Shown here piece by piece: positions 4,534 to 56,292 of a stretch of 64,000 bases of DNA. The stretch lies in contig CAYMRP010000004.1 of NCBI GenBank assembly GCA_964392925.1, forward strand, positions 71,184 through 135,183. The letters run 5' to 3'. This stretch comes from an uncultured Gammaproteobacteria bacterium. Lineage in GTDB: Bacteria > Patescibacteriota > Microgenomatia > Daviesbacterales > UBA10151. How positions within the stretch are numbered: position 1 is the first letter of the stretch; each line of letters starts with the position of its first letter. A program made the position numbers and the translations under genes. A model generated the notes under the pieces. The model did not search any database. It was not told the origin of the DNA and saw nothing but the letters and a program-made list of their open reading frames with translations.

Positions 4534-5520
4534 ATGTACGATCTTATAACTATCGGAGACACAGTCATTGATACCTATCTGCCGATTGATGATGCCCAAG
4601 TTCTTGATAAAAAAGGCGTTAAATATCTTGGTTTAAAGTATGGTTATAAAATCCCCGTTTCTGACGGAGTTTCTGTGGTTGCCGGCAATGCCGCCAATAA
4701 CTCTATCGGAGCCTCCCGGCTGAAGCTAAAAACCGCAATCTATACTAATGTCGGGAATAAAGACGACGAGCAAAATGATGATCGTATCAAAGCTAAATTG
4801 AAGCAGGAAGGTGTGGATGTTCGCTATATAAAAGAAACTGACGATCTTCCTTCAAATCACAATATCGTCCTGACTTATAAAGGTGAGCGAACAATACTAG
4901 TCCATCACCAGCCATTCAAATTCGAGCTTCCAGACTTGGATAAATCTAAATGGGTTTATTTAACTTCAATGGCCCCAAATTATATTGAAACTCCCCTTGT
5001 AAATCAGCTTATCAATTACCTAGAGAGATCAAACGCTAAGCTTGCTTACCAGCCAGGCACTTTTCAGGTCAAACTGCGAGCAAAAAAACAGCACCGAATA
5101 TTATCTTTAGTTAATTTCTTGATTATGAACGCAGAAGAAGCAATTCATTTTCTGGAGCAGGAAGCCAATGAGCCCGTTCCAATTAAAAAACTTCTTAATA
5201 TGCTTTATCAATTAGGTCCTCGGTTAGTTGTTATCACTGATGGTAAAAAAGGCTCATTTGGTTTTGATGGAAAAAAGTATTTCTCGCTTGATGTCTTCCC
5301 TGCCAAGCTTGTCGAAATGACTGGTGCAGGGGATTCATTCGCAACCGGCACTCTGGCCGGCCTCTTTTACGGACATTCACTTGAAGAATCAATGCGCTGG
5401 GGCGGAGTTAATTCAGCCTCAGTCGTCGAACACATGGGATCAACCCCCGGATTATTAACACTAAACAAAATGGAAGAAAAACTAAAGGAACACAAAAAAA
5501 TTACTGCAAATGAATTATGA
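4534..5520 (+). CDS. PfkB-family carbohydrate kinase (ribokinase-like)
   Basis: Has an N-terminal GD..ID motif, and TGAGDSFATG (the PfkB signature 2 region) near the C-terminus. Confidence 0.8.
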   Translation: MYDLITIGDTVIDTYLPIDDAQVLDKKGVKYLGLKYGYKIPVSDGVSVVAGNAANNSIGASRLKLKTAIYTNVGNKDDEQNDDRIKAKLKQEGVDVRYIKETDDLPSNHNIVLTYKGERTILVHHQPFKFELPDLDKSKWVYLTSMAPNYIETPLVNQLINYLERSNAKLAYQPGTFQVKLRAKKQHRILSLVNFLIMNAEEAIHFLEQEANEPVPIKKLLNMLYQLGPRLVVITDGKKGSFGFDGKKYFSLDVFPAKLVEMTGAGDSFATGTLAGLFYGHSLEESMRWGGVNSASVVEHMGSTPGLLTLNKMEEKLKEHKKITANEL

Positions 5521-6803: not shown

Positions 6804-7169
6804 ATGCCTAATATAAATCAAAATGGTCTCGCACCTCTAATATTAATCGGGGTTTTGTTATCTATTGGGGTAATTGCTGCCTCCGGAACATACTACGCTT
6901 TGAATTTAACCCAACCTGTAAAGCAGGAATCTATCATCCCGGCGCAAAATCCAATTCCTTCGCCAAATGTAAATGTCACCATAGAAGAAGTTAAACAAAC
7001 AAACGAAGATGCTTTATTAAATATGGAAGGTGTGGAAAAAGTCGAAGTGGGGGAGAAGGATGGTAAACCCTGTGTAGTTGTCTTCAGCTTCAAAGAAACA
7101 GACGAACTTCAAAATCTGGAGAATAATGGTTTAAGTGGCTATGAGGTAGTTGTCCAAAATACTAAATAA
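6804..7169 (+). CDS. Hypothetical small anchored protein
   Basis: Has an N-terminal TM helix and no motif. Confidence 0.45.
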   Translation: MPNINQNGLAPLILIGVLLSIGVIAASGTYYALNLTQPVKQESIIPAQNPIPSPNVNVTIEEVKQTNEDALLNMEGVEKVEVGEKDGKPCVVVFSFKETDELQNLENNGLSGYEVVVQNTK

Positions 7170-7217
7170 TTAGTAATATCTCGACAATCCCAAAGCGATA
7201 TGCCAAACTAAATATTA

Positions 7218-8102
7218 ATGCCCAATCTTTCTAAATTCCAAAAAGACGGAAAATTCTTAATGCTGGCTTTTGATCACCGCGGCAGCTTCAAAAAACTAAT
7301 GAATCCTGAAAATCCTGATTCAGTAACTGACGAAGAAGCAATTTCTTTAAAAAAAGAAATTATTGACTCACTTAGAGGCCAGTTCACAAGTCTTCTGATT
7401 GATCAGGAAATCGGCTTAAAAGCTTATGAACCCAGAGATGTGCCTTATCTTCTTCCAATCGAAAAAACTGGTTATGAAGTAACGGGTGAAGAACGTTTAA
7501 CTGAACTTGAGAATTCCGTAGAATCACTCAAAGCAGCCGGAGCCTCAGGCGTAAAAATCTTAGTTTGGTTTAATCCCTACGTTGAATCGGCTCAAAAACA
7601 ATTGGAAATCAGTAAAAAAGTTATGGAGGAATGCCAAGCTGCAGATATGCCTTATTTTCTCGAGATCAGAACTTATGACGGTAAACGTGAAGCCGATAAA
7701 ATGGACGATGATGAAAGAGAGAAGATAATCCTCGAATCAATAAAAATGTTCTTAAGACATGATATATTCCCTGATGTCTACAAGCTAGAATACCCAGCCT
7801 CAGCCCTAGCCTGCCAAACAATCTCCGCCGCACTCCAGCTATCAGAACGGGAAATCCCATGGATCCTCCTCACAATGGGCTCCTCATTCGACGACTTCGT
7901 CGCCCAGCTAAAAGAAGCAAGCATCAGAGGCTGTAAAGGATTCTTAGCCGGCCGTGCAGTTTGGCAGGAAGTCTGCGCTATGAAAGGCGAAGAAAAACAG
8001 AAATTCCTAAAAGAAACTCTACCCGAAAGATTCAAAATAATCTCAGAAATAATGGTTGGTAATGCGGAAAATGTCATTGCGAGCGAAGCGTCGCAATCTT
8101 AA
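7218..8102 (+). CDS. Class I aldolase of the LacD/DhnA (tagatose/fructose-bisphosphate aldolase-like) family
   Basis: The MLAFDHRGSF block and a TIM-barrel-like pattern with a late K (VYKLEYP) match this family. The last ~8 codons are a palindromic repeat (8076-8097), so the true C-terminus is uncertain. Confidence 0.55.
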   Translation: MPNLSKFQKDGKFLMLAFDHRGSFKKLMNPENPDSVTDEEAISLKKEIIDSLRGQFTSLLIDQEIGLKAYEPRDVPYLLPIEKTGYEVTGEERLTELENSVESLKAAGASGVKILVWFNPYVESAQKQLEISKKVMEECQAADMPYFLEIRTYDGKREADKMDDDEREKIILESIKMFLRHDIFPDVYKLEYPASALACQTISAALQLSEREIPWILLTMGSSFDDFVAQLKEASIRGCKGFLAGRAVWQEVCAMKGEEKQKFLKETLPERFKIISEIMVGNAENVIASEASQS

Positions 8103-8151: not shown

Positions 8152-9834
8152 TTACTTCTTAACACCTTTATAATCTGCAACAGTTATCCCTGCCCCACTT
8201 AAATGAGCCTGAGAGTATTCGTGCGTCGCATCCATCTTCTTATGCGGATTAAAAATTCCCCGGGGATCAAATATCTTCTTCACAGCCTTAAACAGCTTCA
8301 GCATCTCCGGTCCATACATCTTTTCTAAATATGGTCCCCGGACCAATCCATCATTATGCTCGGCCGCCATAGATCCCCCAAATTCAAAAACCAAATCAAA
8401 AACTTTCCTTGATATCTCCGGAATCAAATCACGGATCTCTTTTTTATGCATATCCATCAAAGGGATAATATGAAAATTCCCATTTCCAATATGCCCGGCA
8501 ATTGTATAAATAATCTTCTTACGATATGGACTTAATACTTTTTGCAGTCTCGGCAGAAAAGCTGGCAATTTCTCAACCCGCACTACAATATCATCAATAA
8601 ACGGCGCAGTCCTTAAAGTCTTTCCTGAATGATTTCTTAAAATATTAAAGCTATCTCGTCTTAAAATCCAGTACTTATCAGAATCGCCATAAGGCACTAC
8701 CCGGCTTATAACTTTAGGATATTTCTTTAGAGAGCTGTGCACACTCTCAGCCTGGCTCATGACTTCTTCTTGGGAATCCCCTGTAAACTCCGCAATCAAA
8801 ACAATCTTCGGTAATTTTCTAAACAAATCCCGCATAAACCCAGGCAATAATTTTAGTTGAATCGGGTCAGAATTATGCTTTTTGAAATCCTTCTTAAAAT
8901 CTGGAATAAATCTATACGAAAATTTGATAGTTTGATCATCAAAACACTCAAAACTCTCCGGCTTAAACTTCAACACCTCCAAAACTACTTTATCCAATTG
9001 GTCCAAAGACGCAAGCTCAATCTCCACCATCGCTTTTTTAGTTTTAGGCTTAATAAGTCCAAATTTAATCTGCGTTATGATCCCGAGAGTTCCTTGTGAG
9101 CCTACAATTAACTTATTTAAATCAAATATCGCCCGGTTTTTATCCCAAACATTCCATAAATAGAGTCCAGTCGAATTTTTTGATGTCTGTGGTTTATGCT
9201 TTTTAATTAAGTCTTCATTTCTCTCTATTAAATTAAAAATCTGTTTATATAAATTTCCCTCGAAAGTTTTCTCTTTCATTTTCGCATCAAGCTCTCTTTT
9301 AGTCAGAGGCTCAATAACATACTCCTGGCCATCAGCCAAAACCACTTTGAGCTCACGAACCCATCTTTCTGTTTGACCATAGCTTAATGTTTTTTCACCT
9401 GCTGAGTTATTGCCCACCATTCCACCAACAGTATTTAATTCTCGGGAAGAGGTATAACAGGGGAGCAGCAAATTCTTCTTAAGAGTTTCTTTTTCAAAAT
9501 TTCTATAATAAACTCCAGGCTGAGTTACAGCATAGTCGTTTCCAACCTGAATCACCCGGTCAAAGTGCTTTGTCATATCAAGAACCAACGACTCGGATAA
9601 TGATCCTCCTGACATACAGGTACCTGCGGCTCTTGGGGTCAGGGATATATCAACCTCTGGATGATCATTAACAAACTGAACCAGCTTTTGGATATCCTCT
9701 GAGTCCTTTGGCGCTATTACCAGTTCTGGTTTCACTACAAATATTGATGCGTCTTTTGAAAAAGTTTCTAAAACTTCTGGTGTATCGATAACCTCTCCTT
9801 TAATAACTTTTGACAACTGATCTTTAAGCTTCAT
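8152..9834 (-). CDS. FAD-linked oxidase (GlcD / D-lactate dehydrogenase-like)
   Basis: Has an FAD_binding_4-type N-terminus (PRAAGTCMSGGS, GGMVGNNSAG) and an FAD-oxidase C-terminal pattern (GHIGNGNFH, GGSMAAEHNDG). Confidence 0.8.
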   Translation of the reverse strand: MKLKDQLSKVIKGEVIDTPEVLETFSKDASIFVVKPELVIAPKDSEDIQKLVQFVNDHPEVDISLTPRAAGTCMSGGSLSESLVLDMTKHFDRVIQVGNDYAVTQPGVYYRNFEKETLKKNLLLPCYTSSRELNTVGGMVGNNSAGEKTLSYGQTERWVRELKVVLADGQEYVIEPLTKRELDAKMKEKTFEGNLYKQIFNLIERNEDLIKKHKPQTSKNSTGLYLWNVWDKNRAIFDLNKLIVGSQGTLGIITQIKFGLIKPKTKKAMVEIELASLDQLDKVVLEVLKFKPESFECFDDQTIKFSYRFIPDFKKDFKKHNSDPIQLKLLPGFMRDLFRKLPKIVLIAEFTGDSQEEVMSQAESVHSSLKKYPKVISRVVPYGDSDKYWILRRDSFNILRNHSGKTLRTAPFIDDIVVRVEKLPAFLPRLQKVLSPYRKKIIYTIAGHIGNGNFHIIPLMDMHKKEIRDLIPEISRKVFDLVFEFGGSMAAEHNDGLVRGPYLEKMYGPEMLKLFKAVKKIFDPRGIFNPHKKMDATHEYSQAHLSGAGITVADYKGVKK

Positions 9835-32235: not shown

Positions 32236-32340
32236 ATACAACATCTAGTGTATTGACAGTTACCTAAGACAATATGTTAATCTTATTTTTACATTAATAC
32301 ATGTTGAGTCTTCAAGACCAATGAGGTACAATATGTTGTA
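32236..32340 (+). promoter_or_regulatory. Candidate NrdR-box region upstream of, and overlapping, the nrdR start
   Basis: ATACAACATCTAGTGTAT lies at 32236-32253. ACAATATGTT occurs twice (32269-32278 and 32328-32337). The last copy forms the near-palindrome TACAATATGTTGTA (32327-32340) that ends on the A of the ATG. The motifs resemble the acaCwAtATaTwGtgt consensus only in part. Confidence 0.35.
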
Positions 32341-32792
32341 TGTATTGCCCATTTTGCAGATCCTTACAGAGCAGTGTTATCGATAAAAGATCGGTAAAAG
32401 GCACTGGTGAAATTAGACGTAGAAGAGAGTGCCTGAAATGTAAAAGACGCTACACTACCTACGAACGGGCAAGCGCAGTCGAGTTATTAGTTATCAAGCG
32501 GGACGGTAGAAGACAGCCTTTTGATATTGAAAAACTCAGAATGGGACTTGAAAGATGTCTGGAAAAGCGTCCGGCTTATCAGAATCTAGATGTCATCCTG
32601 GCTAAACTTGAGCGTAAAATCCGCTCTAAGGAAGTAGCTGAGATTGACAGCAAGGTTATCGGTCGGGAAGTACTCGGAGAACTTAAAAAGCTGGACCAAA
32701 TAGCTTATTTAAGATTTGTTTCCGTTTACAGACAATTTAAGCAGGCCAGCGATTTTACAAAAGAACTCGCAAACCTGAAGCTAGAAGAGTAG
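32340..32792 (+). CDS. nrdR: NrdR transcriptional repressor (zinc ribbon plus ATP-cone)
   Basis: Contains MYCPFCRS...CLKCKRRYTTYE followed by an ATP-cone (VIKRDGRRQPF). Confidence 0.92.
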   Translation: MYCPFCRSLQSSVIDKRSVKGTGEIRRRRECLKCKRRYTTYERASAVELLVIKRDGRRQPFDIEKLRMGLERCLEKRPAYQNLDVILAKLERKIRSKEVAEIDSKVIGREVLGELKKLDQIAYLRFVSVYRQFKQASDFTKELANLKLEE

Positions 32793-32859: not shown

Positions 32860-35379
32860 ATGAAAAAACAAAATCAAAACAAAGCAGTCGCTCTACAAAT
32901 TCAAATCCCAGCAGATAACGCCAAAAAAGCCGAAATCAAAGATGTAAACAGAGCCTTTGATGAAGGAATACTTCCAAAAATCCGGACCAAAACTGAATTA
33001 GATGGTATCCGTCAAAAAGTCTTTATGGATCGCTACTCGCTTAAAGACGTTAACGGTGAACCAACCGAATTTATTCCAGAAGAAATGTGGCAAAGAGTCG
33101 CCGCTGGAATTGCTCAAATGGAAAAAACCCATCCTTTAAGAAAACATTGGGCAAAAGAGTTTTATTCTGCCATGGAAGGATTTAAATTCGTTCCAGCCGG
33201 CCGTATTCTCTCCGGTGCCGGCACGGGCTACGAAGTCACGTTCTTCAATTGCTATGTTATCCCTTCTCCCAAAGATTCAAGACAGGGCATCATGGAAAAC
33301 ATCACTCACACCGTAGAGATTCAGGCAAGAGGTGGAGGAGTTGGAATCAATCTTTCATCTTTAAGACCTCACGGTGCTCGTGTTAAAAAAGTTAACGGCA
33401 CATCCTCAGGACCAGTCTCTTGGGCAAAATTATATTCAGCCGCCAATCACGACGTTATTCAGCAGGGTGGTTCAAGACGCGGCGCTCTAATGCTCATGCT
33501 TCACGACTGGCATCCAGATGTTATTGAATTCATTCACGCCAAAGAAGATGGGGTTTCAATTCCCGGAGCTAATCTCTCAGTCTGTGTTTCTGATAAATTT
33601 ATGGAAGCCGTTCAAAAAGATGAAGAATGGGTAACTGTTTTTCCCGATGTTTCTGACCCTGAATATGATGAAAAATGGGATGGTGTTTTAGAAAATTGGA
33701 CAGAAATGGGTAAGCCAGTTATTGAATACACCAGAATGCCAGCTCGGGAAATTTGGGATCAAATCTGCACTTCAGCCTGGAAGTCCGCTGAGCCAGGTCT
33801 TCACTTCCTTGAGCGAAGCAATAAATGGGGAAATACTTGGTATTTTGAAAAATTACTCTCCACCAATCCTTGCGGTGAACAGCCTTTAGGTGAATGGGCA
33901 GTTTGTAACTTAGGCGCTATGAATCTCTCGGCTTTTGTTAATGATGAAGGGGTGTTCGATTATGACGATCTCGATGCTAAAGTCAGAGTCGCTATGAGAT
34001 TTATGGATAACGTTGTTGATGCCAACTATTATTTCTGGGAAGAGAACGAGAAAAAAGCTAAAGATATTAGAAGAACCGGCATCGGCACAATGGGCTTAGG
34101 TGATGCCTTAATCAAGATGAAACTTGCCTACGGTTCCGAAGATGCTCAACCAGTCATCGAAAAAATATATAAAACAATTAGAGATGCCTCTTATGACACA
34201 TCTTCTGACTTAGCCGCTGAAAAAGGCTCCTTCCCGATGTTTGACTCGGAAAAATATTTACAGGGCCATTTTATTAAACAGCTGCCTCAGCCAATCAGAA
34301 GCAAAATCCAAAATCAGGGCATTAGAAACGCTGTTATTTTAACTCAGGCTCCAACCGGAACTACCTCACTTCTAGCCGGTGTTTCCTCAGGAATCGAACC
34401 AGTTTTTGATTTCAAATTCACCAGAAAAGATCGAATAGGCGAGCACGTTATTTATCATCCGCTATACGAAGCCTGGATGAAGCAAAATCCTGGAGCTGAT
34501 CGCCCTCACTATTTCGTCGGCGCAAATGACATGAGTCCTATGGATCACGTTAAAGTCCAGGCTTTAATCCAGGGATACACTGATTCCTCGATTTCCAAAA
34601 CAGCCAACGCTCCTTTTGAATTCACAGTCGACCAGGTTAAAGAGCTTTATATGGAAGCATATAAATTAGGCTGCAAAGGGGTAACTTTCTTCAGAGACGG
34701 CTCAAGAACTGCCGTCTTAACTCATGGTGATGATAAAAAAACTGAGGTAGCCAAAGTAGAAATGAATTCTGCGACCACACAAGATACTGTCGTTTCTCGC
34801 CCAATGATCTTAAGAGGACGCACCTATAAAATGCAGACTCCAGTTGGAGAAGGTTTTATTACTATCAATCGTGATGAGCAAGATAATCCTTTTGAAGTCT
34901 TCATTACTGTTGGTAAAGGCGGAATGCACACAATGGCTGATGCTGAAGCAATGGGCCGTTTAGTTTCTCTATCCTTAAGACTCGCCAGAAGTGCTTCAAA
35001 CGCTGATCCTAAAACAGTTGCCCAAAAAATCTCGGCCCAACTCCGGGGAATTGGCGGCGCTTCCCACGTTGGATTCGGCAAAGATCGTGTTATGTCCTTA
35101 GCTGACGCTATTGCTAAAGCTTTAGCTGAAGATTTAGCAATAACCGCTGAAAATCCATCAGAAAAAATTGAAACTGTCCCTCTTAATTTAACAATGGAAA
35201 CAGAAACCGCTTCCCCAGTCGAAAATACTGGTGCAGATGATGTTATCACTTCTCAAATGCCGTTAATAACGGAATCTACTCAAAAAACCGCCGATCTTTG
35301 TCCGGAATGCGGACAGGCGAGTTTTGTATTCGAAGAGGGGTGCAAAAAATGCTACTCCTGCGGATACTCAATGTGTTAG
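32860..35379 (+). CDS. nrdJ: Class II (adenosylcobalamin-dependent) ribonucleotide reductase with a C-terminal Cys4 zinc finger
   Basis: Contains NPCGEQPL (catalytic Cys), TGTTS, SKT.N and the tail CPECG...CKKCYSCG. It is 839 aa and monomeric-type. Confidence 0.9.
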   Translation: MKKQNQNKAVALQIQIPADNAKKAEIKDVNRAFDEGILPKIRTKTELDGIRQKVFMDRYSLKDVNGEPTEFIPEEMWQRVAAGIAQMEKTHPLRKHWAKEFYSAMEGFKFVPAGRILSGAGTGYEVTFFNCYVIPSPKDSRQGIMENITHTVEIQARGGGVGINLSSLRPHGARVKKVNGTSSGPVSWAKLYSAANHDVIQQGGSRRGALMLMLHDWHPDVIEFIHAKEDGVSIPGANLSVCVSDKFMEAVQKDEEWVTVFPDVSDPEYDEKWDGVLENWTEMGKPVIEYTRMPAREIWDQICTSAWKSAEPGLHFLERSNKWGNTWYFEKLLSTNPCGEQPLGEWAVCNLGAMNLSAFVNDEGVFDYDDLDAKVRVAMRFMDNVVDANYYFWEENEKKAKDIRRTGIGTMGLGDALIKMKLAYGSEDAQPVIEKIYKTIRDASYDTSSDLAAEKGSFPMFDSEKYLQGHFIKQLPQPIRSKIQNQGIRNAVILTQAPTGTTSLLAGVSSGIEPVFDFKFTRKDRIGEHVIYHPLYEAWMKQNPGADRPHYFVGANDMSPMDHVKVQALIQGYTDSSISKTANAPFEFTVDQVKELYMEAYKLGCKGVTFFRDGSRTAVLTHGDDKKTEVAKVEMNSATTQDTVVSRPMILRGRTYKMQTPVGEGFITINRDEQDNPFEVFITVGKGGMHTMADAEAMGRLVSLSLRLARSASNADPKTVAQKISAQLRGIGGASHVGFGKDRVMSLADAIAKALAEDLAITAENPSEKIETVPLNLTMETETASPVENTGADDVITSQMPLITESTQKTADLCPECGQASFVFEEGCKKCYSCGYSMC

Positions 35380-35389
35380 TATCGAAAAA

Positions 35390-35534
35390 ATAAAGAAACT
35401 CCGAAGTTTGTGAAACTCAAACACTGTGCCGCAACCGTAATAGCCGGGTCGAAGGTTTCTTTGAAAGTGAATAAGTCTCACGAGCAATGAGGGTGATATT
35501 GAAAGTTACCTTCTCCAAAAGAGAAGGTTTTTTT
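35390..35534 (+). promoter_or_regulatory. Cobalamin riboswitch-like element with an intrinsic terminator
   Basis: GUGAAACUCAAACACUGUGCCGCAACCGUAA (35409-35440) parallels the conserved core GGUGnnAAUCCnnnnCnGnnCCCGCnACnGUAA (compare E. coli btuB GUGCGAAUCUGGAGCUGACGCGCAGCGGUAA). A closing helix AAAGAAAC (35392-35399) pairs with GUUUCUUU (35455-35462). A terminator follows at 35508-35534. The B12-box region is degenerate. Confidence 0.55.
35508..35534 (+). terminator. Intrinsic terminator (8-bp stem ACCTTCTC/GAGAAGGT, loop CAAAA, T-run)
   Basis: Read directly from the sequence. It lies inside the N-terminal extension of the track ORF that starts at 35487. Confidence 0.8.
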
Positions 35535-35600
35535 ATTTTCAAGCGAAAGCGAGAAAACAAAGTTTCTTTAACCCCAATTCTCCAAAGACTCCAAAATAAT

Positions 35601-36776
35601 ATGATTCAAGATTTAGAACAATATAGAAATAGGCGTGAAGTAACGAAGGCACCAATAATTAGCGGTGCGAATGCTTTAAAGTTGCAACCGCTTGTTGAAA
35701 TGACACCTCAGCTTAGGGTTGTTACTGAGCTTCCTGCTCCGATTCAAATAGACTCGTTCTTGAAAAGAAAAGTAGAGCCTCTTGCTGAAATCCCTAAAAC
35801 TCCAGAAGTCTTGGCAAGGCAACAGATAATAAATAATACAGCTGAAGCAGAGCCAGAGCGATTTATAGAAAGAGAAATTGACCCAGATAAGCCCTGGAGC
35901 GCCTTTGGACAAGTCATGTTTATAAAAGAGCATATTATTGATGGAAAATCAGTAAAGAAAATCGCTGCGATAAGTATGGCTTATCCAGGTGGGGTAGGAA
36001 CTAGAATGGCAGGGGAAGTGTTGAGTGAAACCGTCGGAATTAACCAATCTGAATTTGTAAGCTGGAAAGGTCAATCTGAAGGGGGGATTATAGCCGCAAG
36101 CAAAGAAGTTCAAAATATTACTGATCAATTTGGACTTATGGACGACTTTATTCAAAACTCCGGTTCAGTAATTAAAAACCGTCATGCTCAAGGTGAGCAC
36201 GAGGTGGTCCAGCACTTCTTCGGCCTGCAAGACACAAGGAAAGAATTTCTAGATACTGTTAAAGAAGATGCAGCTGCAATTTTAGAAAACCCTAATTTCA
36301 CGAGTAGGTCAGCGTTTGATGAGCGTTACAAGGACAAAGGTATTTACTTAATTGAAGGTATAGTGGTCGATGGAGTATGGGAAGGTGGAGATCCTCAGGG
36401 AAAAAGAATGCGTCTTGTTGATATGGCCGCAGATGAAGCACATCTAAAATGGTTGCAATGGGCTGAAAAAACAGCAAGCGAGATGAAAGGTGACGGAGTA
36501 ATTGTTGATGCAGAAGATACTGAGACAGTAACAGACTGCGGTGGAAATAAAGGATGCTCTGAATTCTTTGAAAAAATGGAAGGCAGCACATCTGAACCAA
36601 CCATCGATCTGAGCCGCTACTCTGTATCCACTGGAATAGCAGGCTCTATTGCTGCATCCGCATATTCAAAATCTCAGATTTCTGGAGGCGGAGCTCCAGC
36701 TTATGATAGTGAAAATTGCTCATCCTGCGGCAAAGACCGCTATAAAGAAGATGGCTGCAAATGCTCTACTAATTAA
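35601..36776 (+). CDS. Hypothetical 391-aa soluble protein with a Cys-rich C-terminal module
   Basis: The start is moved to the ATG at 35601 (MIQDLEQYRN) because 35487-35600 covers the riboswitch and terminator. No family is recognised. The tail reads DCGGNKGC...CSSCGKDRYKEDGCKC. Confidence 0.6.
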   Translation: MIQDLEQYRNRREVTKAPIISGANALKLQPLVEMTPQLRVVTELPAPIQIDSFLKRKVEPLAEIPKTPEVLARQQIINNTAEAEPERFIEREIDPDKPWSAFGQVMFIKEHIIDGKSVKKIAAISMAYPGGVGTRMAGEVLSETVGINQSEFVSWKGQSEGGIIAASKEVQNITDQFGLMDDFIQNSGSVIKNRHAQGEHEVVQHFFGLQDTRKEFLDTVKEDAAAILENPNFTSRSAFDERYKDKGIYLIEGIVVDGVWEGGDPQGKRMRLVDMAADEAHLKWLQWAEKTASEMKGDGVIVDAEDTETVTDCGGNKGCSEFFEKMEGSTSEPTIDLSRYSVSTGIAGSIAASAYSKSQISGGGAPAYDSENCSSCGKDRYKEDGCKCSTN

Positions 36777-36778
36777 TA

Positions 36779-37333
36779 ATGAAACCCAGCAAAAAATTTA
36801 AAGAAACAAAGCACGGTTTAACAATTATCTACACCGGTGAAGGCAAAGGTAAAACTACTGCCGCCTTAGGTTTGGCTTTACGTGCCGCAGGCTACAAAAG
36901 AAAAGTCTTAATTATCCAATTTGGCAAAACCTGGTTTTCAGGTGAGCTGGAAGGCATCAAAATGTTAAAGCCTTACGTCAAAATTATTCAGGGCGGTTTA
37001 GGTTTCGTTAAAATCTTTGATGACCAATCCGATATAAAAGACCACAAAAAAATGGCTCAGCAAACTTATGACCTATTATATAAGGAAGTTGTATCCGGAA
37101 ATTATGATGTAGTTATAGCAGATGAAATAGTTGGAGCAATTGCTGGAAAAATGGTCACCCAAAAACAAGTTATTCAACTAATAAAAGACAAACCTAAAAC
37201 CCTCGACTTGGTTTTAACCGGCCACCACGGCAAGCCTTCACTATTCAAACACGCCGATTTAGTAACCGAAATGATGCCAATAAAACACCCCTTCGAAAAA
37301 GGCTTCCTAGCTAAACCAGGAGTAGACTACTAA
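36779..37333 (+). CDS. btuR: Cob(I)yrinic acid a,c-diamide / cob(I)alamin adenosyltransferase (CobA/CobO/BtuR type)
   Basis: Contains LTIIYTGEGKGKTTAALG (P-loop of the CobA family), DE..GA and TGHH. The size is ~184 aa. Confidence 0.8.
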   Translation: MKPSKKFKETKHGLTIIYTGEGKGKTTAALGLALRAAGYKRKVLIIQFGKTWFSGELEGIKMLKPYVKIIQGGLGFVKIFDDQSDIKDHKKMAQQTYDLLYKEVVSGNYDVVIADEIVGAIAGKMVTQKQVIQLIKDKPKTLDLVLTGHHGKPSLFKHADLVTEMMPIKHPFEKGFLAKPGVDY

Positions 37334-37919: not shown

Positions 37920-40322
37920 ATGGATCCAATCTCTAACCCTATTAAACTAAGTAAAACTTTACCAGTAGGTCCTTTACGCGGCACTGTTATTTTCCCTGGC
38001 AACACAGTCCCAATCGTCTCCGCCCGTCCAAAATCACGCGCGGCCCTTGATGCTGCTTGGGCTACTAATCGTTTAGTAGTTTTCGTTGCCCAAAAGAATG
38101 AGCGCATCGATGATCCCAAAAAAGATGATTTATTCCAGGTAGGCACAGTTTGTTTAATCAAAAGAATTTTAAAAGTCGATAATGAATACCAACTTAGTGC
38201 CGAAGGCTTAACCCGTGTATTTATTAAAGGCTTCACCCAGACTGATAATTATTTAGAAGCTGAAATTGAAGAAATTCCTGAGCTATATGAGAGAAATGAA
38301 GAAACAGAAGCTTTAATTAGAACAGTTCGTGAGCAATTACGAAAATATCTGGAACTCAACGGAAATCCGTTATTTGATATGTCCTCACTTACAAACTGGC
38401 CGCTAATTTCCTCAAGCGATGATCCAAATCAGCTAGTTAATACAATTTGCCAAATGATCGAATTTAAAACAATCGATAAGCAGCAAATTTTAGAAATGGT
38501 TGCAGCCTCAGAAAGACTTCAAAGAGTCTCCGAATTACTCGCCAAAGAAATCAGAATTCTGGAAATTTCTCAAAAAATCTCTTCCCATACTCAGGAGAGA
38601 GTTTCCCGGATGACTAAAGAAGCTATTTTAAGAGAACAAATGCGCTCAATTGAAGAAGAGTTAGGTGAAGCTTCTGAAAATTCCGAAGTCCGCGAGTTTG
38701 AACTTAAGATCCGCAAAGCCAGCATGCCTAAAGAAGTTCGTGATAAAGCTAATAAAGAGCTTGGTCGTTTGGCAAAAATGTCCTCGTATAATCCTGAAGC
38801 TGCCTATATTAGAAATTACATTGAATGGTTAACTGATTTGCCTTGGAAAGGTGCACCCAAAACAAAAATCGATATGAAAAAAGCTGAAAAAGTTTTGGAT
38901 GCCGAGCATTACGGACTAAAAAAAGTTAAAGAGCGAATTATGGAATACCTAGCCGTTTATAAATTATCAGGCAAACTCCACGGCCCAATCTTATGTTTCG
39001 CTGGACCTCCGGGTACTGGAAAAACCTCAATCGGAAAATCAATCGCCAAAGCCTTAGGCCGAAAGTTTGTTAAAGTTTCTCTCGGTGGTATCAGAGACGA
39101 AGCTGAAATCAGAGGTCACAGAAGAACCTACGTTGGTTCTATGCCAGGACGCATGATCCAATCAGTCAAACAAGCTGGAACCTCAAATCCGGTCTTTATG
39201 TTAGACGAAATTGATAAAATCGGAGCCGATTACCGAGGTGATCCTTCAGCAGCCTTGCTTGAAGCGCTTGATCCTGAACAAAATCATTCCTTCTCAGATC
39301 ATTATTTAGAAGTGCCTTACGATTTGTCTAATGTTATGTTTATAACCACAGCAAACATGCTCGATACCATTCCTCCGGCACTGCGTGATCGTCTCGAAGT
39401 CATTACTTATCCAGGCTATACCAGAGATGAAAAATTTAATATCGCTAAGAACCATCTATTACCAAAAGTAATCGAGTCTCACGGACTAAAAAATTCTAAA
39501 ATCAAACTCGATTTTGATGAAAGCGCTATTTATCAGGTTATCGATGGCTACACTCGTGAAGCCGGAGTCAGAAGTTTAGAGCGGGAGCTCTCCGCAGTAA
39601 TTAGAAAAATCGCCAGAAAAATCGCTGAAGGCGAAATTAAATCTAGCTATCCGGTCACTGAAGAAGTTGTCAGAAAATTATTAGGTCCTGTTAAATTCTT
39701 GCCAGAGCTCGCTGAAATTGAAGATATGATCGGCGCTTCGACTGGCCTCGCTTGGAGTGAAGTTGGCGGATCAATTATGTTTATCGAGGTTACTTTAATG
39801 CCTGGTAAAGGTGCAATTCAATTAACAGGTCAATTAGGAGACGTTATGAAAGAATCAGCTCAAGCTGCAATGTCATATGTCCGTTCAAGTTGGGCAGCTC
39901 TAGGCTTAAATGAAAAATTCTTCCATAAAGTCGATGTTCACGTCCACGTTCCTGAAGGCGCAGTTCCTAAAGACGGTCCCTCTGCTGGAATCGCTTTAAC
40001 TACCGCTATTGTTTCAGCTTTTACTAAAATCCCTGTTAAAAAAGACATCGCCATGACCGGAGAAGTTACTTTAAGAGGTCGGGTTCTAGAAATCGGCGGC
40101 TTAAAAGAAAAAGTCCTCGCTGCCCACAGGGCTGGTGTTAAAGATATTATTATTCCTGAAAACAATAAAAAGGATTTGGAAGATATTCCAGAACATATTG
40201 TTGCTGATCTAAAATTCCACACAGTCAAGCATATGGACCAGGTACTGGAAATCGCTCTAATCAGAAATCCTTTTCCTAAAGCCAAGAAAATTCATTCAAC
40301 CCTTCCTCCAGCTTTTGCTTAA
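37920..40322 (+). CDS. lon: ATP-dependent Lon protease
   Basis: Has a Lon N-domain, Walker [10 protein letters not shown] and the protease Ser in PKDGPSAG. Confidence 0.93.
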
Positions 40323-48159: not shown

Positions 48160-48561
48160 ATGTTAAATATAACTGAGCTTTTAACTAAAATAATAAATTG
48201 GGGAAATTCTGAAGAAAGTATTCAAGCCATTGGTTTAGTTGGATCTCACGCCAGAAAAGCAGCAACAGATGATTCAGATGTTGATCTAATGATCATTTGT
48301 AAAAATCCCGAAAATTATATTTCTGACGAAGATTGGATTCACAATTTCGGTCAAGTAAAAGAAATAAAAAATGAAATATGGAGTCAGTTAAAAACCAAAA
48401 GGGTTTTCTACACGAACGGCTTAGAAGTTGAATTTAATTTCGACAAAGCTTCTTGGGCAAATCATGAAGATTCAGGAACTAAAAGAGTTATTACAGATGG
48501 AATAAAGATTCTAGTAGATAAAGAAAAAATTCTGGAAAATTTACAAAAGTTTTTTAAGTAG
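48160..48561 (+). CDS. Short nucleotidyltransferase resembling the N-terminal domain of ANT(6) (AadK-type)
   Basis: Contains GLVGSHARKAATDDSDVDLMI (the G-S...D-x-D NTase core). YISDEDWIHNFG parallels FISNDDWLNQFG of AadK as recalled. It is 133 aa versus about 280 aa for full ANT(6). Confidence 0.55.
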   Translation: MLNITELLTKIINWGNSEESIQAIGLVGSHARKAATDDSDVDLMIICKNPENYISDEDWIHNFGQVKEIKNEIWSQLKTKRVFYTNGLEVEFNFDKASWANHEDSGTKRVITDGIKILVDKEKILENLQKFFK

Positions 48562-48630
48562 CGCGTACGGGAGTCGAACCCGTTCTGCTAGATTGAGAAT
48601 CTAACGTCCTAACCGGTAGACGAACGCGCC
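48559..48630 (-). tRNA. tRNA-Glu (anticodon CUC)
   Basis: The manual cloverleaf has acceptor GGCGCGU/ACGCGCU (G1-U72 wobble), D-arm GUCU/GGAC and anticodon stem UUAGA/UCUAG with loop UUCUCAA. It also has a 4-nt variable loop, T-arm ACGGG-UUCGACU-CCCGU and discriminator A. No CCA is encoded. Confidence 0.85.
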
Positions 48631-51849: not shown

Positions 51850-53358
51850 TTAATTTACCGGTAAGCTTGATGAAGTGCCTGCCGAAGCAGCTGGACTGCC
51901 GCTAGGTGTTGGTGAAGCTTTTTGCTGAGCAGCTCTCATCGCCGGGCTAAGCGATGCTGCTGGACTTGAAGCAGGGTCTGGTGATCCGCCTACTGTAGGT
52001 GCTGGTAATGCAGTGTCTGTTGTTGGTTCCATGACTGGAACTGGAGATGGGGCAACTATTTGTGCCGGAGGATTAGTTAATGGAGCTTGTGTCTGTTGTG
52101 TTTCTTCAACAGGTAAAGAAGTTTCATCTGTAGGTGTTGGATTAGCTTGCCCCACTCCTAATATTAAATAAGCACTTAAAGCTGCAACTATCAGGATAAT
52201 TGGAATACCCGCAACTAAAAGTACTTTTGTTAAATTTAAATGCTTACCAGGAGGTGGAGCATCGCCTTCTGCTGATTGTGGTGTTGCAGAAGCCGGAGCC
52301 ATATTCAAGTTCTGATCAGCTGCAACTGGTGGGGTATAAACTCCATTCGTCTGCGAAGGTGCTGTCTCGTCACCTGCAATTAAATGCGATAAATCAGTTG
52401 GGGCATTCTCAACAGGTCCCATGTCCGGAAGAGGGGAGGCTGTAGGTGCGGCTGCAGCCTGATCAGGTTGTATTGGTGCTTGCATAGCAGCTGGATCTGC
52501 AGGCGGAGTAGTTGTAGCCCCGAGTCCCGATTGAAGTCCTGATAAATCCATCGATCCGGGTTGCGGCTGTGAGGACATAGTTTGATCCTGAATTTGGGCA
52601 GTTTCTTGTGGTGGGTTTCCAGGCTGGACATTTAGATCAATAGTAGGTGTCGCCATTGGGTCAGACATCGAAGCTGCTACTGGCGCTGCGGTTGGCGCTG
52701 AGAACTGTGACTCTGCCGGAGCCGGTTGATCCCAAGGATTAACAGTTGGTGCAGCAGGCTGAGTAGGATCACTAGGTAGCGCCGTAGCTCCTTCAAACGG
52801 ACTCTGCGGAGGAGTCGGAGTGAATGCTGTATTCAAAGGATCAGGTGGAGTAGTTGTCTGAGCACCGTATGGTGCGGCTGGTTGTTCAGGCAAAGGCGTA
52901 GGTGCTGCAGGCTGTTCAAAGGGAGGTGATGTATTAAAAGTCCCTGCTTGAGGCTGTAAAAAAGGATTAGCGGCTGCCGGATTTTCACTTGGCACTGCTG
53001 GTTCTGGAGGTGCCATCGGAGCTGTTGGTACATCTGTCGGAACAGTCGCTTGTGGGGTAGGCGGCCACGCCGCTCCTGAACTTGCGGTCGGTGTACTTGG
53101 CAATGGTGAAGAAAATCCAGGTTCTGGTGCAACAGTTTCAACCGGTACCGGGCTCCAAGGATTAGGAGCAGCTGTTGGGTTTGATTGGGCTGGATCTGAC
53201 ACAGGCATACTGGAAGAAAGGGGAGCTGATGTTGCCGATTGGTCAGGACTGCTGGACCATCCTGGAGTTTGTTGTGGAGGGGTTAATGGATCAACAGGGG
53301 CTGCGCCAAAAGGTAAACTAGGATTGTTATTTGGATTATTAGGGTCATTACTATCCAT
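51850..53358 (-). CDS. 502-aa Pro/Ala/Thr/Gln-rich low-complexity protein with a single TM helix near residue 380
   Basis: One continuous ORF, visibly GC-richer than its flanks. The TM span is VLLVAGIPIILIVAALSAYLILGV, with K/H residues on its N-terminal side. Confidence 0.6.
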   Translation of the reverse strand: MDSNDPNNPNNNPSLPFGAAPVDPLTPPQQTPGWSSSPDQSATSAPLSSSMPVSDPAQSNPTAAPNPWSPVPVETVAPEPGFSSPLPSTPTASSGAAWPPTPQATVPTDVPTAPMAPPEPAVPSENPAAANPFLQPQAGTFNTSPPFEQPAAPTPLPEQPAAPYGAQTTTPPDPLNTAFTPTPPQSPFEGATALPSDPTQPAAPTVNPWDQPAPAESQFSAPTAAPVAASMSDPMATPTIDLNVQPGNPPQETAQIQDQTMSSQPQPGSMDLSGLQSGLGATTTPPADPAAMQAPIQPDQAAAAPTASPLPDMGPVENAPTDLSHLIAGDETAPSQTNGVYTPPVAADQNLNMAPASATPQSAEGDAPPPGKHLNLTKVLLVAGIPIILIVAALSAYLILGVGQANPTPTDETSLPVEETQQTQAPLTNPPAQIVAPSPVPVMEPTTDTALPAPTVGGSPDPASSPAASLSPAMRAAQQKASPTPSGSPAASAGTSSSLPVN

Positions 53359-53490
53359 GGCAGTTACTCTATAAGTTTATGCGAAGATAGCCTTAATAAT
53401 CAAGTAGTCGCATAAATTACGGTAGTGCTTTTTGCTCATTTCAGGTATAATCCCTCACACAGGGGAATTCCCAAAGTAAGAGTCAGTAAT

Positions 53491-56292
53491 ATGCTTAATT
53501 TTTTTTCTTCATTAATCGATGCCAATAAACGGGAAATTAATCGCCTCTCAAAAATCGTTGAAACCATTAATAGTTATGAAGCTAAAATCAAAAAGTTTGA
53601 CGATAAAAAGTTTAAAGAAAAAGCTCTAGATCTACGTAAAAGACATGAAAAAGGTGAAACCTTAGAGTCTCTTTTACCTGAAGCTTTTGCTTTCGCCCGC
53701 GAAGCCGCTAGCCGCAGCCTAGGCATGCGTCACTATGATGTTCAGCTAATGGCAGCCATCGCTTTGCACAGCGGTAAGATCGCCGAACAACGAACCGGTG
53801 AAGGAAAAACTATGTCTGGTGTTCCGGCCATTTTTCTAAATGCTCTTTCCGGTAAAGGTGTCCATGTAGTTACGGTAAATGATTATTTAGCTCGCCGCGA
53901 TGCAGGTTGGAATGGACCTATCTTTCATACTCTAGGTGTTTCAGTCTCAGTTATTATTCATGAAAAGGCTTTTCTTTTTGATCCAAAATATAAAGATCCA
54001 GACACAACAGATAAACGGCTTAAGAATTTAAGACCAGTCACTCGCAAAGAAGCTTATGCTGCTGATATAACTTACGGCACTAATAATGAGTTTGGTTTTG
54101 ATTATCTAAGGGACAACATGGCCAACAGCTTGGATAATATGGTTCAGCGAGGTCACAATTTCGCCATCGTTGATGAAGTAGATTCAATTTTAATTGACGA
54201 GGCCCGTACTCCATTAATTATTTCAGCCCCCGATACTGAGCCCACAGGTAAATATATTGAGTTCACCAAAATCGTCAGTCAGCTTGATGGTAAAACAGAT
54301 TATGTAGTTAACGAAAAAGAACGTGCAGCCCACATGACAGAGGAAGGTATTCTTCATATCGAAAAAATTATGGGTGTCGATAATCTTTATGAAAAAGATT
54401 TTTCTGCTCTTCACCATATAGAAGAAGCCTTAAAAGCCAGAACCCTTTTTCTTAAAGACCGCGACTATGTTGTTAAAGATGGCGAAGTAATTATTGTTGA
54501 TGAATTCACTGGCCGTTTAATGCCGGGCCGCCGTTACTCCGGAGGTCTACATCAATCAATCGAAGCCAAAGAAGGCGTTAAAATCCAACAAGAGTCAAAA
54601 ACTTTAGCCACAATTTCTTTCCAGAATTACTTCAGAATGTATAAAAAGCTTTCTGGTATGACTGGAACTGCAGCCACCGAAGCAGAAGAATTCTTTAAAA
54701 TCTATAAGCTGGAAGTAGTTATTATCCCAACTCATCAACCTATGATCAGAAAAGATAATCCTGATGCTATCTTTAAAACCCAAACCGGTAAATTGATGGC
54801 CGTCGCCTCAGAAGTTGAAAAAATTCATGCATCTGGCCAGCCTGTTTTAGTAGGTACAACTTCGATTGATAAAAACGAATTCTTATCTGAACTCTTAAAG
54901 AAAAAGCGGATCTCCCACGCACTTTTAAATGCTAAAAACCACGAACGCGAGGCCGAAATTATTGCTGATGCCGGTCAAAAAGGTTCAGTAACTGTAGCCA
55001 CTAACTTAGCCGGTCGTGGTGTCGATATTAAGCTTGGTAAAAATGTTGAAAAATTAGGCGGACTTTATGTTATCGGTACCGAACGTCACGAATCAAGGAG
55101 AATCGATAATCAATTAAGAGGCCGCTCAGGTCGTCAGGGTGACCCGGGTGCTTCCAAATTCTTTGTTTCTCTTGAAGATGATTTAATGAGAATCTTTGGC
55201 GGCGAGCAAGTCGCAAGAGTCATGGGCTTTTTAAAAATGCCGGAAGATACTCCTATCGAAAACGGTATGGTTTCCAAAGCAATTGAAGGCGCACAGAAAA
55301 AAGTTGAAGGTCATAATTTTGATATCCGTAAACATACAGTTGAATACGACGACGTTATGAATCAGCAGCGCCAGATTATTTATGGTGTCAGAAGGAATGT
55401 CCTGGATGTCTTAGCTGGAAAATCCAAAGATGGTAAATCTCTTAAGGATGAAATCATCGAAAAAATCGGCATTGAAGTCGAAGCCATCATTGATGACTAT
55501 GCGATTGAAGGGGAGATAGAATATGAAAAAATTATCGAAGATTTCTCAACCATAATTAATTTTGATCAAGCCAGCCGTAAACAGCTATTAGGCCAAATCT
55601 CAGATATCAAAGATGAAGCTAAATTAAAAGAATTTTTAGTCCGTCTCGCCGAAGATCTCTACGGTGAAAAAGAAAAAACCGTCGGTGCCGATCTGATGCG
55701 CCAAATGGAAAGCTTTGTTTACTTAAACACAATTGATACTTTTTGGATGGAACATCTCGATACAATGGATGATCTTCGCTCAGGTATCGGATTGCGCGGA
55801 TATGCCCAAAGAGATCCTCTAATCGAATATAAAAAAGAAGGCTTTGAGTTATTCGAAAAAATGATTGCTGAAATTGATTCAGAAATTGCCAGACGTATCT
55901 ATAAAGTCTCAATGCATAATCATGGGCCAGTCCAGGTTGTTTCTCCAATCGATATGTCAAAAGCCGTCGCAACCCACGATGAGGCGCTCGATGAAAAAAC
56001 CTTACTTGAAGAAGTCGGCCAGCTTATGCCGTCAGTTCCTGAAGTTCGCCACAGCGGAACCAAAATCAAAGTTGAAGGCTCAAGTAATGATGAGGCATAC
56101 TCTCAGACTCCGACTGTAGTCGAAGAACCAGTTGCTGCCGGCACCCGAGTTACTGTTGAAAGAGCCGGTCAGGTTGTCTCACAAGATGTCTATAACGATA
56201 CAGGTTCGCTCCAAAGGAAAAAGCCTGGCAGAAATGACCCCTGCCACTGCGGTTCAGGCAAAAAATATAAAAAATGCCATTATCCTAATTAG
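53491..56292 (+). CDS. secA: Preprotein translocase ATPase SecA
   Basis: Contains MRHYDVQL, GEGKT, DEVDSILIDEARTPLIIS and the C-terminal zinc motif CHCGSGKKYKKCH. The start is set at the ATG at 53491 (MLNFFSSL). Confidence 0.93.
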   Translation: MLNFFSSLIDANKREINRLSKIVETINSYEAKIKKFDDKKFKEKALDLRKRHEKGETLESLLPEAFAFAREAASRSLGMRHYDVQLMAAIALHSGKIAEQRTGEGKTMSGVPAIFLNALSGKGVHVVTVNDYLARRDAGWNGPIFHTLGVSVSVIIHEKAFLFDPKYKDPDTTDKRLKNLRPVTRKEAYAADITYGTNNEFGFDYLRDNMANSLDNMVQRGHNFAIVDEVDSILIDEARTPLIISAPDTEPTGKYIEFTKIVSQLDGKTDYVVNEKERAAHMTEEGILHIEKIMGVDNLYEKDFSALHHIEEALKARTLFLKDRDYVVKDGEVIIVDEFTGRLMPGRRYSGGLHQSIEAKEGVKIQQESKTLATISFQNYFRMYKKLSGMTGTAATEAEEFFKIYKLEVVIIPTHQPMIRKDNPDAIFKTQTGKLMAVASEVEKIHASGQPVLVGTTSIDKNEFLSELLKKKRISHALLNAKNHEREAEIIADAGQKGSVTVATNLAGRGVDIKLGKNVEKLGGLYVIGTERHESRRIDNQLRGRSGRQGDPGASKFFVSLEDDLMRIFGGEQVARVMGFLKMPEDTPIENGMVSKAIEGAQKKVEGHNFDIRKHTVEYDDVMNQQRQIIYGVRRNVLDVLAGKSKDGKSLKDEIIEKIGIEVEAIIDDYAIEGEIEYEKIIEDFSTIINFDQASRKQLLGQISDIKDEAKLKEFLVRLAEDLYGEKEKTVGADLMRQMESFVYLNTIDTFWMEHLDTMDDLRSGIGLRGYAQRDPLIEYKKEGFELFEKMIAEIDSEIARRIYKVSMHNHGPVQVVSPIDMSKAVATHDEALDEKTLLEEVGQLMPSVPEVRHSGTKIKVEGSSNDEAYSQTPTVVEEPVAAGTRVTVERAGQVVSQDVYNDTGSLQRKKPGRNDPCHCGSGKKYKKCHYPN

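Follow-up and report, generated by a model that had tools for sequence, protein, structure and literature searches.

The window analyzed here, a stretch of 64,000 nucleotides (nt) of contig CAYMRP010000004.1 (assembly GCA_964392925.1), contains a locus of Patescibacteria in which nrdJ, the gene for an adenosylcobalamin (AdoCbl)-dependent class II ribonucleotide reductase (RNR), is followed by an uncharacterized gene, referred to here as X, and by btuR, which encodes an ATP:corrinoid adenosyltransferase. Positions 35391 to 35534, in the gap between nrdJ and X, most probably (about 80%, in our estimate) represent a cobalamin riboswitch that turns off transcription of the two-gene unit X-btuR (35601 to 37333). 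Judged by its sequence, this RNA is a compact cobalamin riboswitch that consists of an aptamer, a second hairpin, and an intrinsic terminator, and it appears to be a lineage-specific new member of a known riboswitch class that is missed by standard Rfam annotation. The elements of the leader and the two genes behind it are as follows.

35391 to 35463, plus strand: class-II-like cobalamin aptamer (34.1 bits with RF01689, 103.8 bits with our model R1; RNAalifold; covariation)
35392 to 35399 with 35455 to 35462, plus strand: helix P1, plus the G.U pairs 35391/35463 and 35400/35454
35402 to 35404 with 35449 to 35451, plus strand: inner 3-bp helix
35406 to 35410 with 35418 to 35422, plus strand: T-loop hairpin
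35425 to 35427 with 35431 to 35433, plus strand: P5, with the loop GCC at 35428 to 35430
35435 to 35437 with 35445 to 35447, plus strand: P6, a 3-bp stem with a 7-nt loop (35435 to 35447)
35476 to 35492, plus strand: P13-like regulatory hairpin, with the covarying stem 35476 to 35480/35488 to 35492 and the invariant loop CGAGCAA at 35481 to 35487
35489 to 35513, plus strand: proposed antiterminator, GAGGGU at 35489 to 35494 (P13 3' strand) with ACCUUC at 35508 to 35513 (terminator 5' arm)
35508 to 35534, plus strand: intrinsic terminator from a terminator scan, with the 8-bp stem 35508 to 35515/35521 to 35528, the loop CAAAA, and a U-run up to 35534
35535 to 35600, plus strand: remaining leader, defined by the alignment of 9 orthologous leaders
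35601 to 36776, plus strand: X, an uncharacterized protein of 391 amino acids (aa) (homologues, alignments, and AlphaFold models; no family or fold match)
36779 to 37333, plus strand: btuR/cobA-type ATP:corrinoid adenosyltransferase (PF02572, 3e-51, 174 bits versus a cutoff of 25.7)

An Rfam scan of the whole window at the curated gathering thresholds returns only a tRNA (48559 to 48630) and no cobalamin match. A sensitive scan of positions 35300 to 35700 shows a full-length match of 35392 to 35462 to RF01689 (AdoCbl-II, formerly “AdoCbl-variant”), with a score of 34.1 bits and a local E value of 2e-6. Such an Rfam comparison had been proposed in an earlier note made from the letters of this DNA alone (hereafter, the sequence-only reading); it thus came out negative in gathering mode and positive in sensitive mode, with several related elements exceeding the curated cutoffs, and the gathering-mode result, taken alone, would have caused the finding to be wrongly dismissed. 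The conserved core GUGAAACUCAAACACUGUGCCGCAACCGUAA (35410 to 35440), which the sequence-only reading had recognized as cobalamin-like, aligns with the most conserved part of RF01689. Its B12-box region, CUGUGCCGCAACCGU..AGCCGGGUCG, matches the model consensus at high posterior probability and is invariant in 28 relatives, and a 26-nt core pattern has a single match in the window, compared with 0 matches expected from 100 shuffles, even with 3 mismatches allowed. A covariance model built on this subtype, R1, gives the window a score of 103.8 bits, inside the family range; it recovered 3 elements outside its training set and found no second copy of the riboswitch in the window.

Searching metagenomic sequences with the core pattern yielded 28 further loci, all of which contain the aptamer. 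The CGAGCA hairpin and the terminator are also present in these loci wherever the contig extends far enough (L036 ends at the contig edge). Curated cutoffs are passed by the elements in L012 (RF01482, 58 bits versus 50), L045 (RF01689, 56.2 versus 36.5), and L043 (RF00174, 39.6 versus 31.5), and by the second copy in L017 (RF01689, 40.5 versus 36.5). A match to the cobalamin riboswitch clan of Rfam, CL00101, is found in the nrdJ-X gap of 8 of the 8 orthologous loci scanned, and one of these matches, in L012, is above the cutoff. RF01482 is the best model for four orthologous loci, and the window itself scores better with RF01689. The L012 element (937 to 1073), the sole X-type copy over an Rfam cutoff (RF01482, 58 bits), carries a 24-nt insertion in the P6 loop, that is, a P6 extension. 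In two other elements, L015 2029 to 2166 and L031 5386 to 5522, both on the minus strand, the T-loop (L4) contains an inserted GC-rich hairpin of ~27 nt (CUCGCCUCGCUUC..GGCGAAGCGGG).

The fold of the aptamer is supported by covariation. P1, which encloses three internal hairpins arranged around a multi-way junction, corresponds to the 8-bp helix noticed in the sequence-only reading, and it covaries strongly in the 28 related sequences. RNAalifold, applied to a MAFFT alignment, independently recovers P1, the inner helix, the three hairpins, and the P13-like hairpin, with compensatory changes in 11 of 25 pairs; in the comparison of the 28 related RNAs, such changes are seen in 14 of 28 pairs. 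They occur in P1, in the T-loop hairpin, and in P13. P5 and P6 are invariant save for one change in P5, which comes from L012, and these two stems are therefore uninformative for covariation. In two MAFFT alignments, 95.0% and 96.3% of the cells assigned to helices are paired, versus 34 to 53% when the partners are slid by 1 to 3 columns, and there are 46 and 69 double-change cells versus 16 ± 3 and 21 ± 4 in shuffles. With the refined alignment, 0 of 500 shuffles match the observed value on any of five measures. The window aptamer lacks the large peripheral extension of P6, as expected of the class II (AdoCbl-II) subtype. When the whole leader is folded to its minimum free energy without constraints, the aptamer does not appear; we gave this result no weight because such folding does not model tertiary and ligand contacts.

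The P13-like hairpin, which was absent from the sequence-only reading, links the aptamer to the terminator. In the 28 sequences, its CGAGCA loop is invariant and its stem covaries, and in the orthologues it is matched by the second hairpin of RF01482. The L5 sequence UGCCG (35427 to 35431) can form 5 pairs with CG-A-GCA (35481 to 35486), with A35483 bulged, and both loops are invariant. In this riboswitch class, cobalamin is known to stabilize the kissing between L5 and the P13 loop, which is interrupted by unpaired purines (PMC5028336). When the nascent transcript is folded without the 3' arm of the terminator, the 5' arm pairs with the P13 3' strand or loop, both in the window RNA and in 23 of its 26 relatives. 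The terminator, whose stem and T-run had been correctly identified by the sequence-only reading, is found by a terminator scan and is kept in related loci with the compensatory stem variants CCUUCUC, CCCUCU, CCUUCC, and CCAACC.

These features suggest a switching scheme from which we infer the OFF logic, the kissing contact, and the form of the ligand. The compact class-II-like aptamer would bind a corrinoid, and binding would stabilize the kissing of L5 (UGCCG) with the P13 loop (CG-A-GCA). The stabilized P13 would hold its 3' strand, GAGGGU, so that the terminator at 35508 to 35534 forms and transcription stops. Without the corrinoid, GAGGGU would pair with the terminator 5' arm, ACCUUC, and RNA polymerase would read into X and btuR. 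That the ligand turns X-btuR off through this chain of events (kissing loop, held P13, terminator) appears quite probable.

The alignment of nine leaders shows an invariant aptamer core, the second hairpin with its invariant CGAGCA loop, the terminator, and the start codon followed by MIQ(D/N)LEQYRNRR. It also bears on the beginning of X. The ATG at 35487 overlaps both the loop and the 3' strand of the conserved hairpin (CGAGCAAUG), and the homologues start at the equivalent of 35601 (MIQDLEQYRNRR). As the upstream ATG lies inside the second hairpin, it is not the start, and X begins at 35601, just as the sequence-only reading had proposed for this open reading frame (ORF); both the orthologous leaders and the alignment of homologues agree with this. 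An equivalent upstream ATG has been taken as the start in the NCBI entry P0017, from a metagenome-assembled genome (MAG). No Shine-Dalgarno sequence is evident before the start codon of X. The window leader has an insertion of its own, 35535 to 35569 (~35 nt), between the terminator and the AACCCCAA motif (35570 to 35577), which is conserved in X-type leaders; the insertion is absent from 8 of the 8 orthologous leaders and holds AAAGTTTCTTTAA, a near copy of the 3' strand of P1 (AAGGTTTCTTTGA, 35453 to 35465). The sequence AAYCCCCAAA is found right after the terminator U-run in most X-type leaders (the window, L001, L004, L006, L008, L010, L011, and L013) and is missing from L005, L012, and the PduO-type leaders.

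The position of the switch next to nrdJ is itself informative. The sequence gives the nrdJ stop codon at 35377 to 35379 and a gap of 221 nt up to the ATG at 35601; the aptamer starts 12 nt past the stop codon, with no terminator between, and the aptamer onset is at most 12 nt from the nrdJ stop in 4 of the 9 distinct X-type loci, the window included. This short distance and the lack of an intervening terminator suggest that the switch probably acts on nrdJ read-through and, by the same sequence evidence, probably doubles as a conditional end of the nrdR-nrdJ transcript. The alternative would be a promoter that overlaps the nrdJ stop codon, with a -10-like motif, TGTTAGTAT, at 35374 to 35382; this motif was read by eye and is not reported by a consensus promoter scan. 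In other loci, the riboswitch does not abut nrdJ, and a spacer of 90 to 130 nt with long imperfect inverted repeats is found instead (L001 3688 to 3810, L008 3713 to 3836, and L006 5814 to 5900; in L001, the repeat is GAAGTGGGA...TCCCACTTC).

The flanking genes in the window complete a conserved arrangement, nrdR-nrdJ-(RNA)-X-btuR-lon.

32340 to 32792, plus strand: nrdR (Pfam Zn_ribbon_NrdR and ATP-cone; synteny)
32860 to 35379, plus strand: nrdJ, AdoCbl-dependent class II RNR (TIGR02504, 583.2 bits versus a cutoff of 399.95; Pfam)
37920 to 40322: Lon

The score of nrdJ is an equivalog-level match to the class II RNR model, which bears out its initial description as a B12-dependent RNR. The C terminus of NrdJ (window positions 35297 to 35379) is a six-Cys array, CPEC..CKKC..CGYSMC, of the type described for the Cys-rich domains of class II RNRs. 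The adenosyltransferase gene, which starts 2 nt past the stop codon of X, had likewise been assigned to the CobA/BtuR type: the match to PF02572 spans profile positions 2 to 172 of 172 and includes the GEGKGKT P-loop, and the TIGR00708 score is 139.5 bits, under the cutoff of 167.75. By these scores, the protein is a member of the CobA/BtuR family and a divergent equivalog. A dedicated search of the window for the other families of the B12 regulon described below (DUF4430, DUF6580, alpha-toroid, PduO, and Y) found none. Elsewhere in the window, at 52001 to 54000, the G+C content is locally raised (0.47 versus ~0.38), with a strong positive GC skew, and no Rfam family is matched there.

Genes downstream of the same type of RNA in other loci code for PduO-type adenosyltransferases (PF01923, 4e-57), DUF6580 membrane proteins, small membrane-anchored DUF4430 proteins, and secreted prenyltransferase-like alpha-toroid proteins. 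In eukaryotic cobalamin carriers, the two domains are probably similar to the DUF4430 and alpha-toroid domains. The riboswitch thus occupies the 5' leaders of B12-related genes, X-btuR in the window and PduO, DUF4430, DUF6580, and alpha-toroid genes elsewhere, and to the extent that sequence similarity tells, the regulon outside the window is B12 related. Some gene clusters contain two cobalamin riboswitches, L017 at 7141 to 7256 and 8739 to 8837 and L029 at 4913 to 5022 and 4196 to 4291 (both on the minus strand). One of the two precedes DUF4430 or PduO genes, and the other lies directly before a gene of a second Cys-tailed family, referred to here as Y.

Proteins of the Y family are ~355 to 380 aa long and are encoded after PduO genes, as in L030 (11239 to 12333, oriented) and also in L023, L019, L017, L015, and L029. 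Their C termini, which are analogous to the tail of X, combine GSCG or PCPG with a CxxC..CxxC ribbon, and the proteins have no Pfam or NCBIfam match. The riboswitch of Y in L017 is the copy that passes the RF01689 cutoff (40.5 bits versus 36.5), and L029 encodes a more divergent Y-family member with its own riboswitch, which is seen by R1 alone (44.3 bits). We considered Y as a remote homologue of X and rejected this idea: hhalign gives a probability of 0.6%, and the X hidden Markov model does not match Y. By analogy, the unrelated family Y may do the same job as X.

X belongs to a rare family. A set of 5.8 billion clustered proteins contains only 18 of its relatives, only 42 X-family proteins were found when 1.84 billion representatives were searched exhaustively with a profile, and in a scan with a 13-sequence alignment, the sole species-representative genome with the X family is a Patescibacteria MAG. 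Residues 1 to 85 are disordered and contain a GANAL motif that some members lack; the core (residues ~85 to 330, about 230 to 250 residues) is confidently modeled by AlphaFold as an alpha+beta domain, with the same topology from 18 and from 48 sequences and predicted local distance difference test (pLDDT) values of 94 to 98 in the 48-sequence model. The tail contains six Cys residues, C313, C319, C373, C376, C386, and C388. Across the 48-member alignment, F102 and C313 never vary, and C373, C376, and C386 hardly do. A Foldseek search of the model against PDB folds gives nothing at an E value of ≤1e-3, a profile search against PDB sequences gives no match, Pfam and NCBIfam have no family for X or its short form, and Pfam has none for any of the 48 members. 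X is a cytoplasmic protein of a rare family whose fold has no known counterpart in the PDB. The sequence-only reading had described it as an ORF with no recognizable family and a Cys-rich tail and had suggested a structure search, and both the description and the outcome of that search, a confident core with no PDB match, are in keeping with this.

The link of X to B12 is well supported in the sequence data, since it holds in every context retrieved. The order NrdR, NrdJ, gap, X, 0 or 1 variable gene, BtuR, and Lon is seen in every X locus with sufficient flanks. In L028, a short form of X follows PduO under the same riboswitch, and in L044, P0036 is encoded at the end of a DUF4430-DUF6580-PduO cluster, on a contig whose first letters lie within a riboswitch. 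The distant relatives P0047 (L043) and P0045 (L045) are encoded behind the RF00174 and RF01689 elements of 39.6 bits (cutoff, 31.5) and 56.2 bits (cutoff, 36.5), respectively. Three different Rfam models, in diverged genomes, therefore point at the X family, and the linkage of X homologues to riboswitches and adenosyltransferases that the sequence-only reading had asked about is consistent. Between X and btuR, L012 has a transposase-like gene (Y1_Tnp, weak), and L010 has an ORF of 142 aa (2234 to 2662) behind a divergent X (P0018). This ORF begins with NPVYGNFIRIIKTHG, and its start resembles the X-superfamily core (W/Y-x-AF-x-Q...), so it may be a fragment of X or a short paralogue. The small ORFs next to X have no match in Pfam or NCBIfam, and a conserved third partner beside X/btuR was rejected as an explanation for them, as they are not similar to each other. 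In L043, a 33-codon ORF that is largely Cys (MAEKESKECKVCGCECEDCQCMKIQGCIRCGCQ; 3545 to 3646) is found a short distance before the RF00174 riboswitch of P0047.

What X does can be proposed from this context. A role in handling B12 is the somewhat favored assumption, and X is most likely a partner of the adenosyltransferase when scavenged corrinoid is processed. We infer this processing or escort function from the design of the tail, which is like that of RNR tails, and from the tight coupling to the adenosyltransferase. The likeness to the class II RNR tail further suggests thiol redox chemistry; a thiol-based mechanism is a tentative proposal, in which the invariant Cys313 and the zinc-ribbon-like Cys tail might serve to reduce the corrinoid or to remove its upper ligand. 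More specifically, and again with less than even odds, X could be the first of a class of cytoplasmic proteins, with a fold not seen before, that process corrinoids in B12-scavenging Patescibacteria and prepare imported cobalamin for the adenosyltransferase feeding NrdJ. The idea that X is a corrinoid factor goes back to the sequence-only reading; the riboswitch and the gene linkage on which it was based are confirmed, and the role itself, still drawn from context, is well motivated.

Several observations weigh against parts of this interpretation. The window RNA scores below the RF01689 gathering threshold (34.1 versus 36.5 bits), a shortfall that results from the outer helix, whose 5-bp inner half in RF01689 is replaced here by the 3-bp helix 35402 to 35404/35449 to 35451. 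The candidate kissing loops are invariant, hence their contact has no covariation support, and the energies of the antiterminator duplex beat those of shuffles just modestly (mean z = -0.72). No biochemical or structural feature of X hints at corrinoid binding, its relatives in L043 and L045 have no adenosyltransferase neighbor, and a B12-repressed gene could equally be one that is needed only when B12 is absent. As to the RNA, a chance resemblance to cobalamin riboswitches could appeal to the subthreshold Rfam score and to nothing else, and its probability is negligible given the local E value of 2e-6, a core pattern expected 0 times, matches in all orthologous loci tested, the covariation, and the B12-related regulon. 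The window copy might also be a decayed, nonfunctional remnant, with the hairpin at 35508 to 35534 serving as a plain nrdJ terminator. The lack of a match at Rfam gathering thresholds, the shortened inner helix, and the abutment of the aptamer on the nrdJ stop codon would all fit such decay; however, ~28 diverged sequences share the same shortened architecture, in which the stems show compensatory changes and the core nucleotides are invariant, and the R1 score of the window, 103.8 bits, is in the range of the other members, so this explanation is very improbable.

For X, the choice is between corrinoid processing and functions that accept the riboswitch as real. X could have a B12-sparing or bypass function that is de-repressed when B12 is scarce, as is the case for metE and nrdAB/nrdDG in other bacteria. 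The OFF logic fits this equally well, X adjoins nrdJ, whose enzyme fails without B12, and the two distant relatives in L043 and L045 have their own riboswitches and no adenosyltransferase nearby. A bypass nevertheless seems unlikely, as the coupling of X to btuR holds for the window and its orthologues alike, relatives of X in L028 and L044 lie inside PduO and uptake clusters, and X has neither nucleotide-binding or RNR-like features nor a known fold. A still smaller chance attaches to X being the electron donor, or redox partner, that is still missing for the six-Cys C-terminal domain of NrdJ. The native reductant of such tails has been reported as unknown (PMC5704485), X is adjacent to nrdJ across the X clade, and both proteins end in six-Cys arrays; yet a reductant of NrdJ would be expected when B12 is available, opposite to the predicted OFF switch, and the distant X relatives stand in PduO/uptake clusters or alone, with no adjoining nrdJ. 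We consider this possibility poor.

To our knowledge, Patescibacteria (the candidate phyla radiation, CPR) have minimal genomes and no B12 synthesis, and the B12-dependent reductase is the only visible route to deoxynucleotides here. The literature that we searched contains no description of how Patescibacteria acquire or activate corrinoids and nothing that links Patescibacteria or CPR to a cobalamin riboswitch, an adenosyltransferase, or DUF6580, or DUF4430 to a riboswitch. The value of the riboswitch lies in the genes that it regulates, and model R1 offers a means of mapping the B12 regulon in Patescibacteria. That regulon includes a putative uptake set formed by DUF4430, DUF6580, and alpha-toroid proteins, two types of adenosyltransferases, and two uncharacterized Cys-tailed families under riboswitch control, X and Y, the former with a confidently predicted fold that has no PDB match. 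If X indeed processes corrinoids, it would fill a poorly defined bacterial step between uptake and adenosylation and would be a bacterial functional counterpart of CblC/CblD.

Among known proteins, eukaryotic CblC/MMACHC and CblD, the cobalamin reductase PduS, and BtuM, a Cys-ligating decyanase, prepare cobalamin for the adenosyltransferase, some of them by means of a thiolate. The analogy to X is functional only: a flexible segment of X carries an invariant Cys, and its gene shares operons with adenosyltransferase genes, whereas neither the sequence nor the fold of X resembles a solved structure, and it has no recognizable flavin, Fe-S, or B12-binding motif. The Cys-rich domain of class II RNRs consists of six Cys residues at the extreme C terminus, which bind zinc and pass electrons on (Loderer et al. 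2017, PMC5704485). The tail of X also has six conserved Cys residues, and the adjacent NrdJ has a tail of this kind; in X, however, the spacing of the Cys residues is different, the core is unrelated, and no homology has been demonstrated.

As for the RNA, it shares with RF01689 and its structural prototype, env8HyCbl, the four-way-junction core, the T-loop hairpin, the short P6 with no peripheral extension, and a downstream P13 hairpin whose loop, with an unpaired purine, is predicted to kiss L5 in the window RNA as well. In contrast to RF01689, the inner half of its outer helix has 3 bp, its score is below the cutoff, and it comes from Patescibacteria rather than marine bacteria. The P13 loop of env8 carries the ribosome-binding site, which results in translational control, whereas P13 in the window RNA is predicted to compete with the antiterminator/terminator and thus to exert transcriptional control. 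The loop of the second hairpin in the RF01482 (“AdoCbl”) model, UCGAGGCAA, is closely similar to CGAGCA(A) here, whereas most copies described here have no P6 insertion of the L012 kind. RF01482 was presumably built on the AdoCbl riboswitch of the Enterococcus/Listeria eut locus, which controls a terminator; its context is a small RNA in the ethanolamine locus, as opposed to cis control of B12 salvage genes in the loci studied here. Compared with the classical RF00174 riboswitches, found upstream of btuB, cob, and btuR, the window RNA is about half the size and lacks the P6-P11 peripheral domain, but it is predicted to share their ligand class and the repression of genes for B12 uptake and processing, and one distant X relative, P0047, is encoded behind an RF00174 element.

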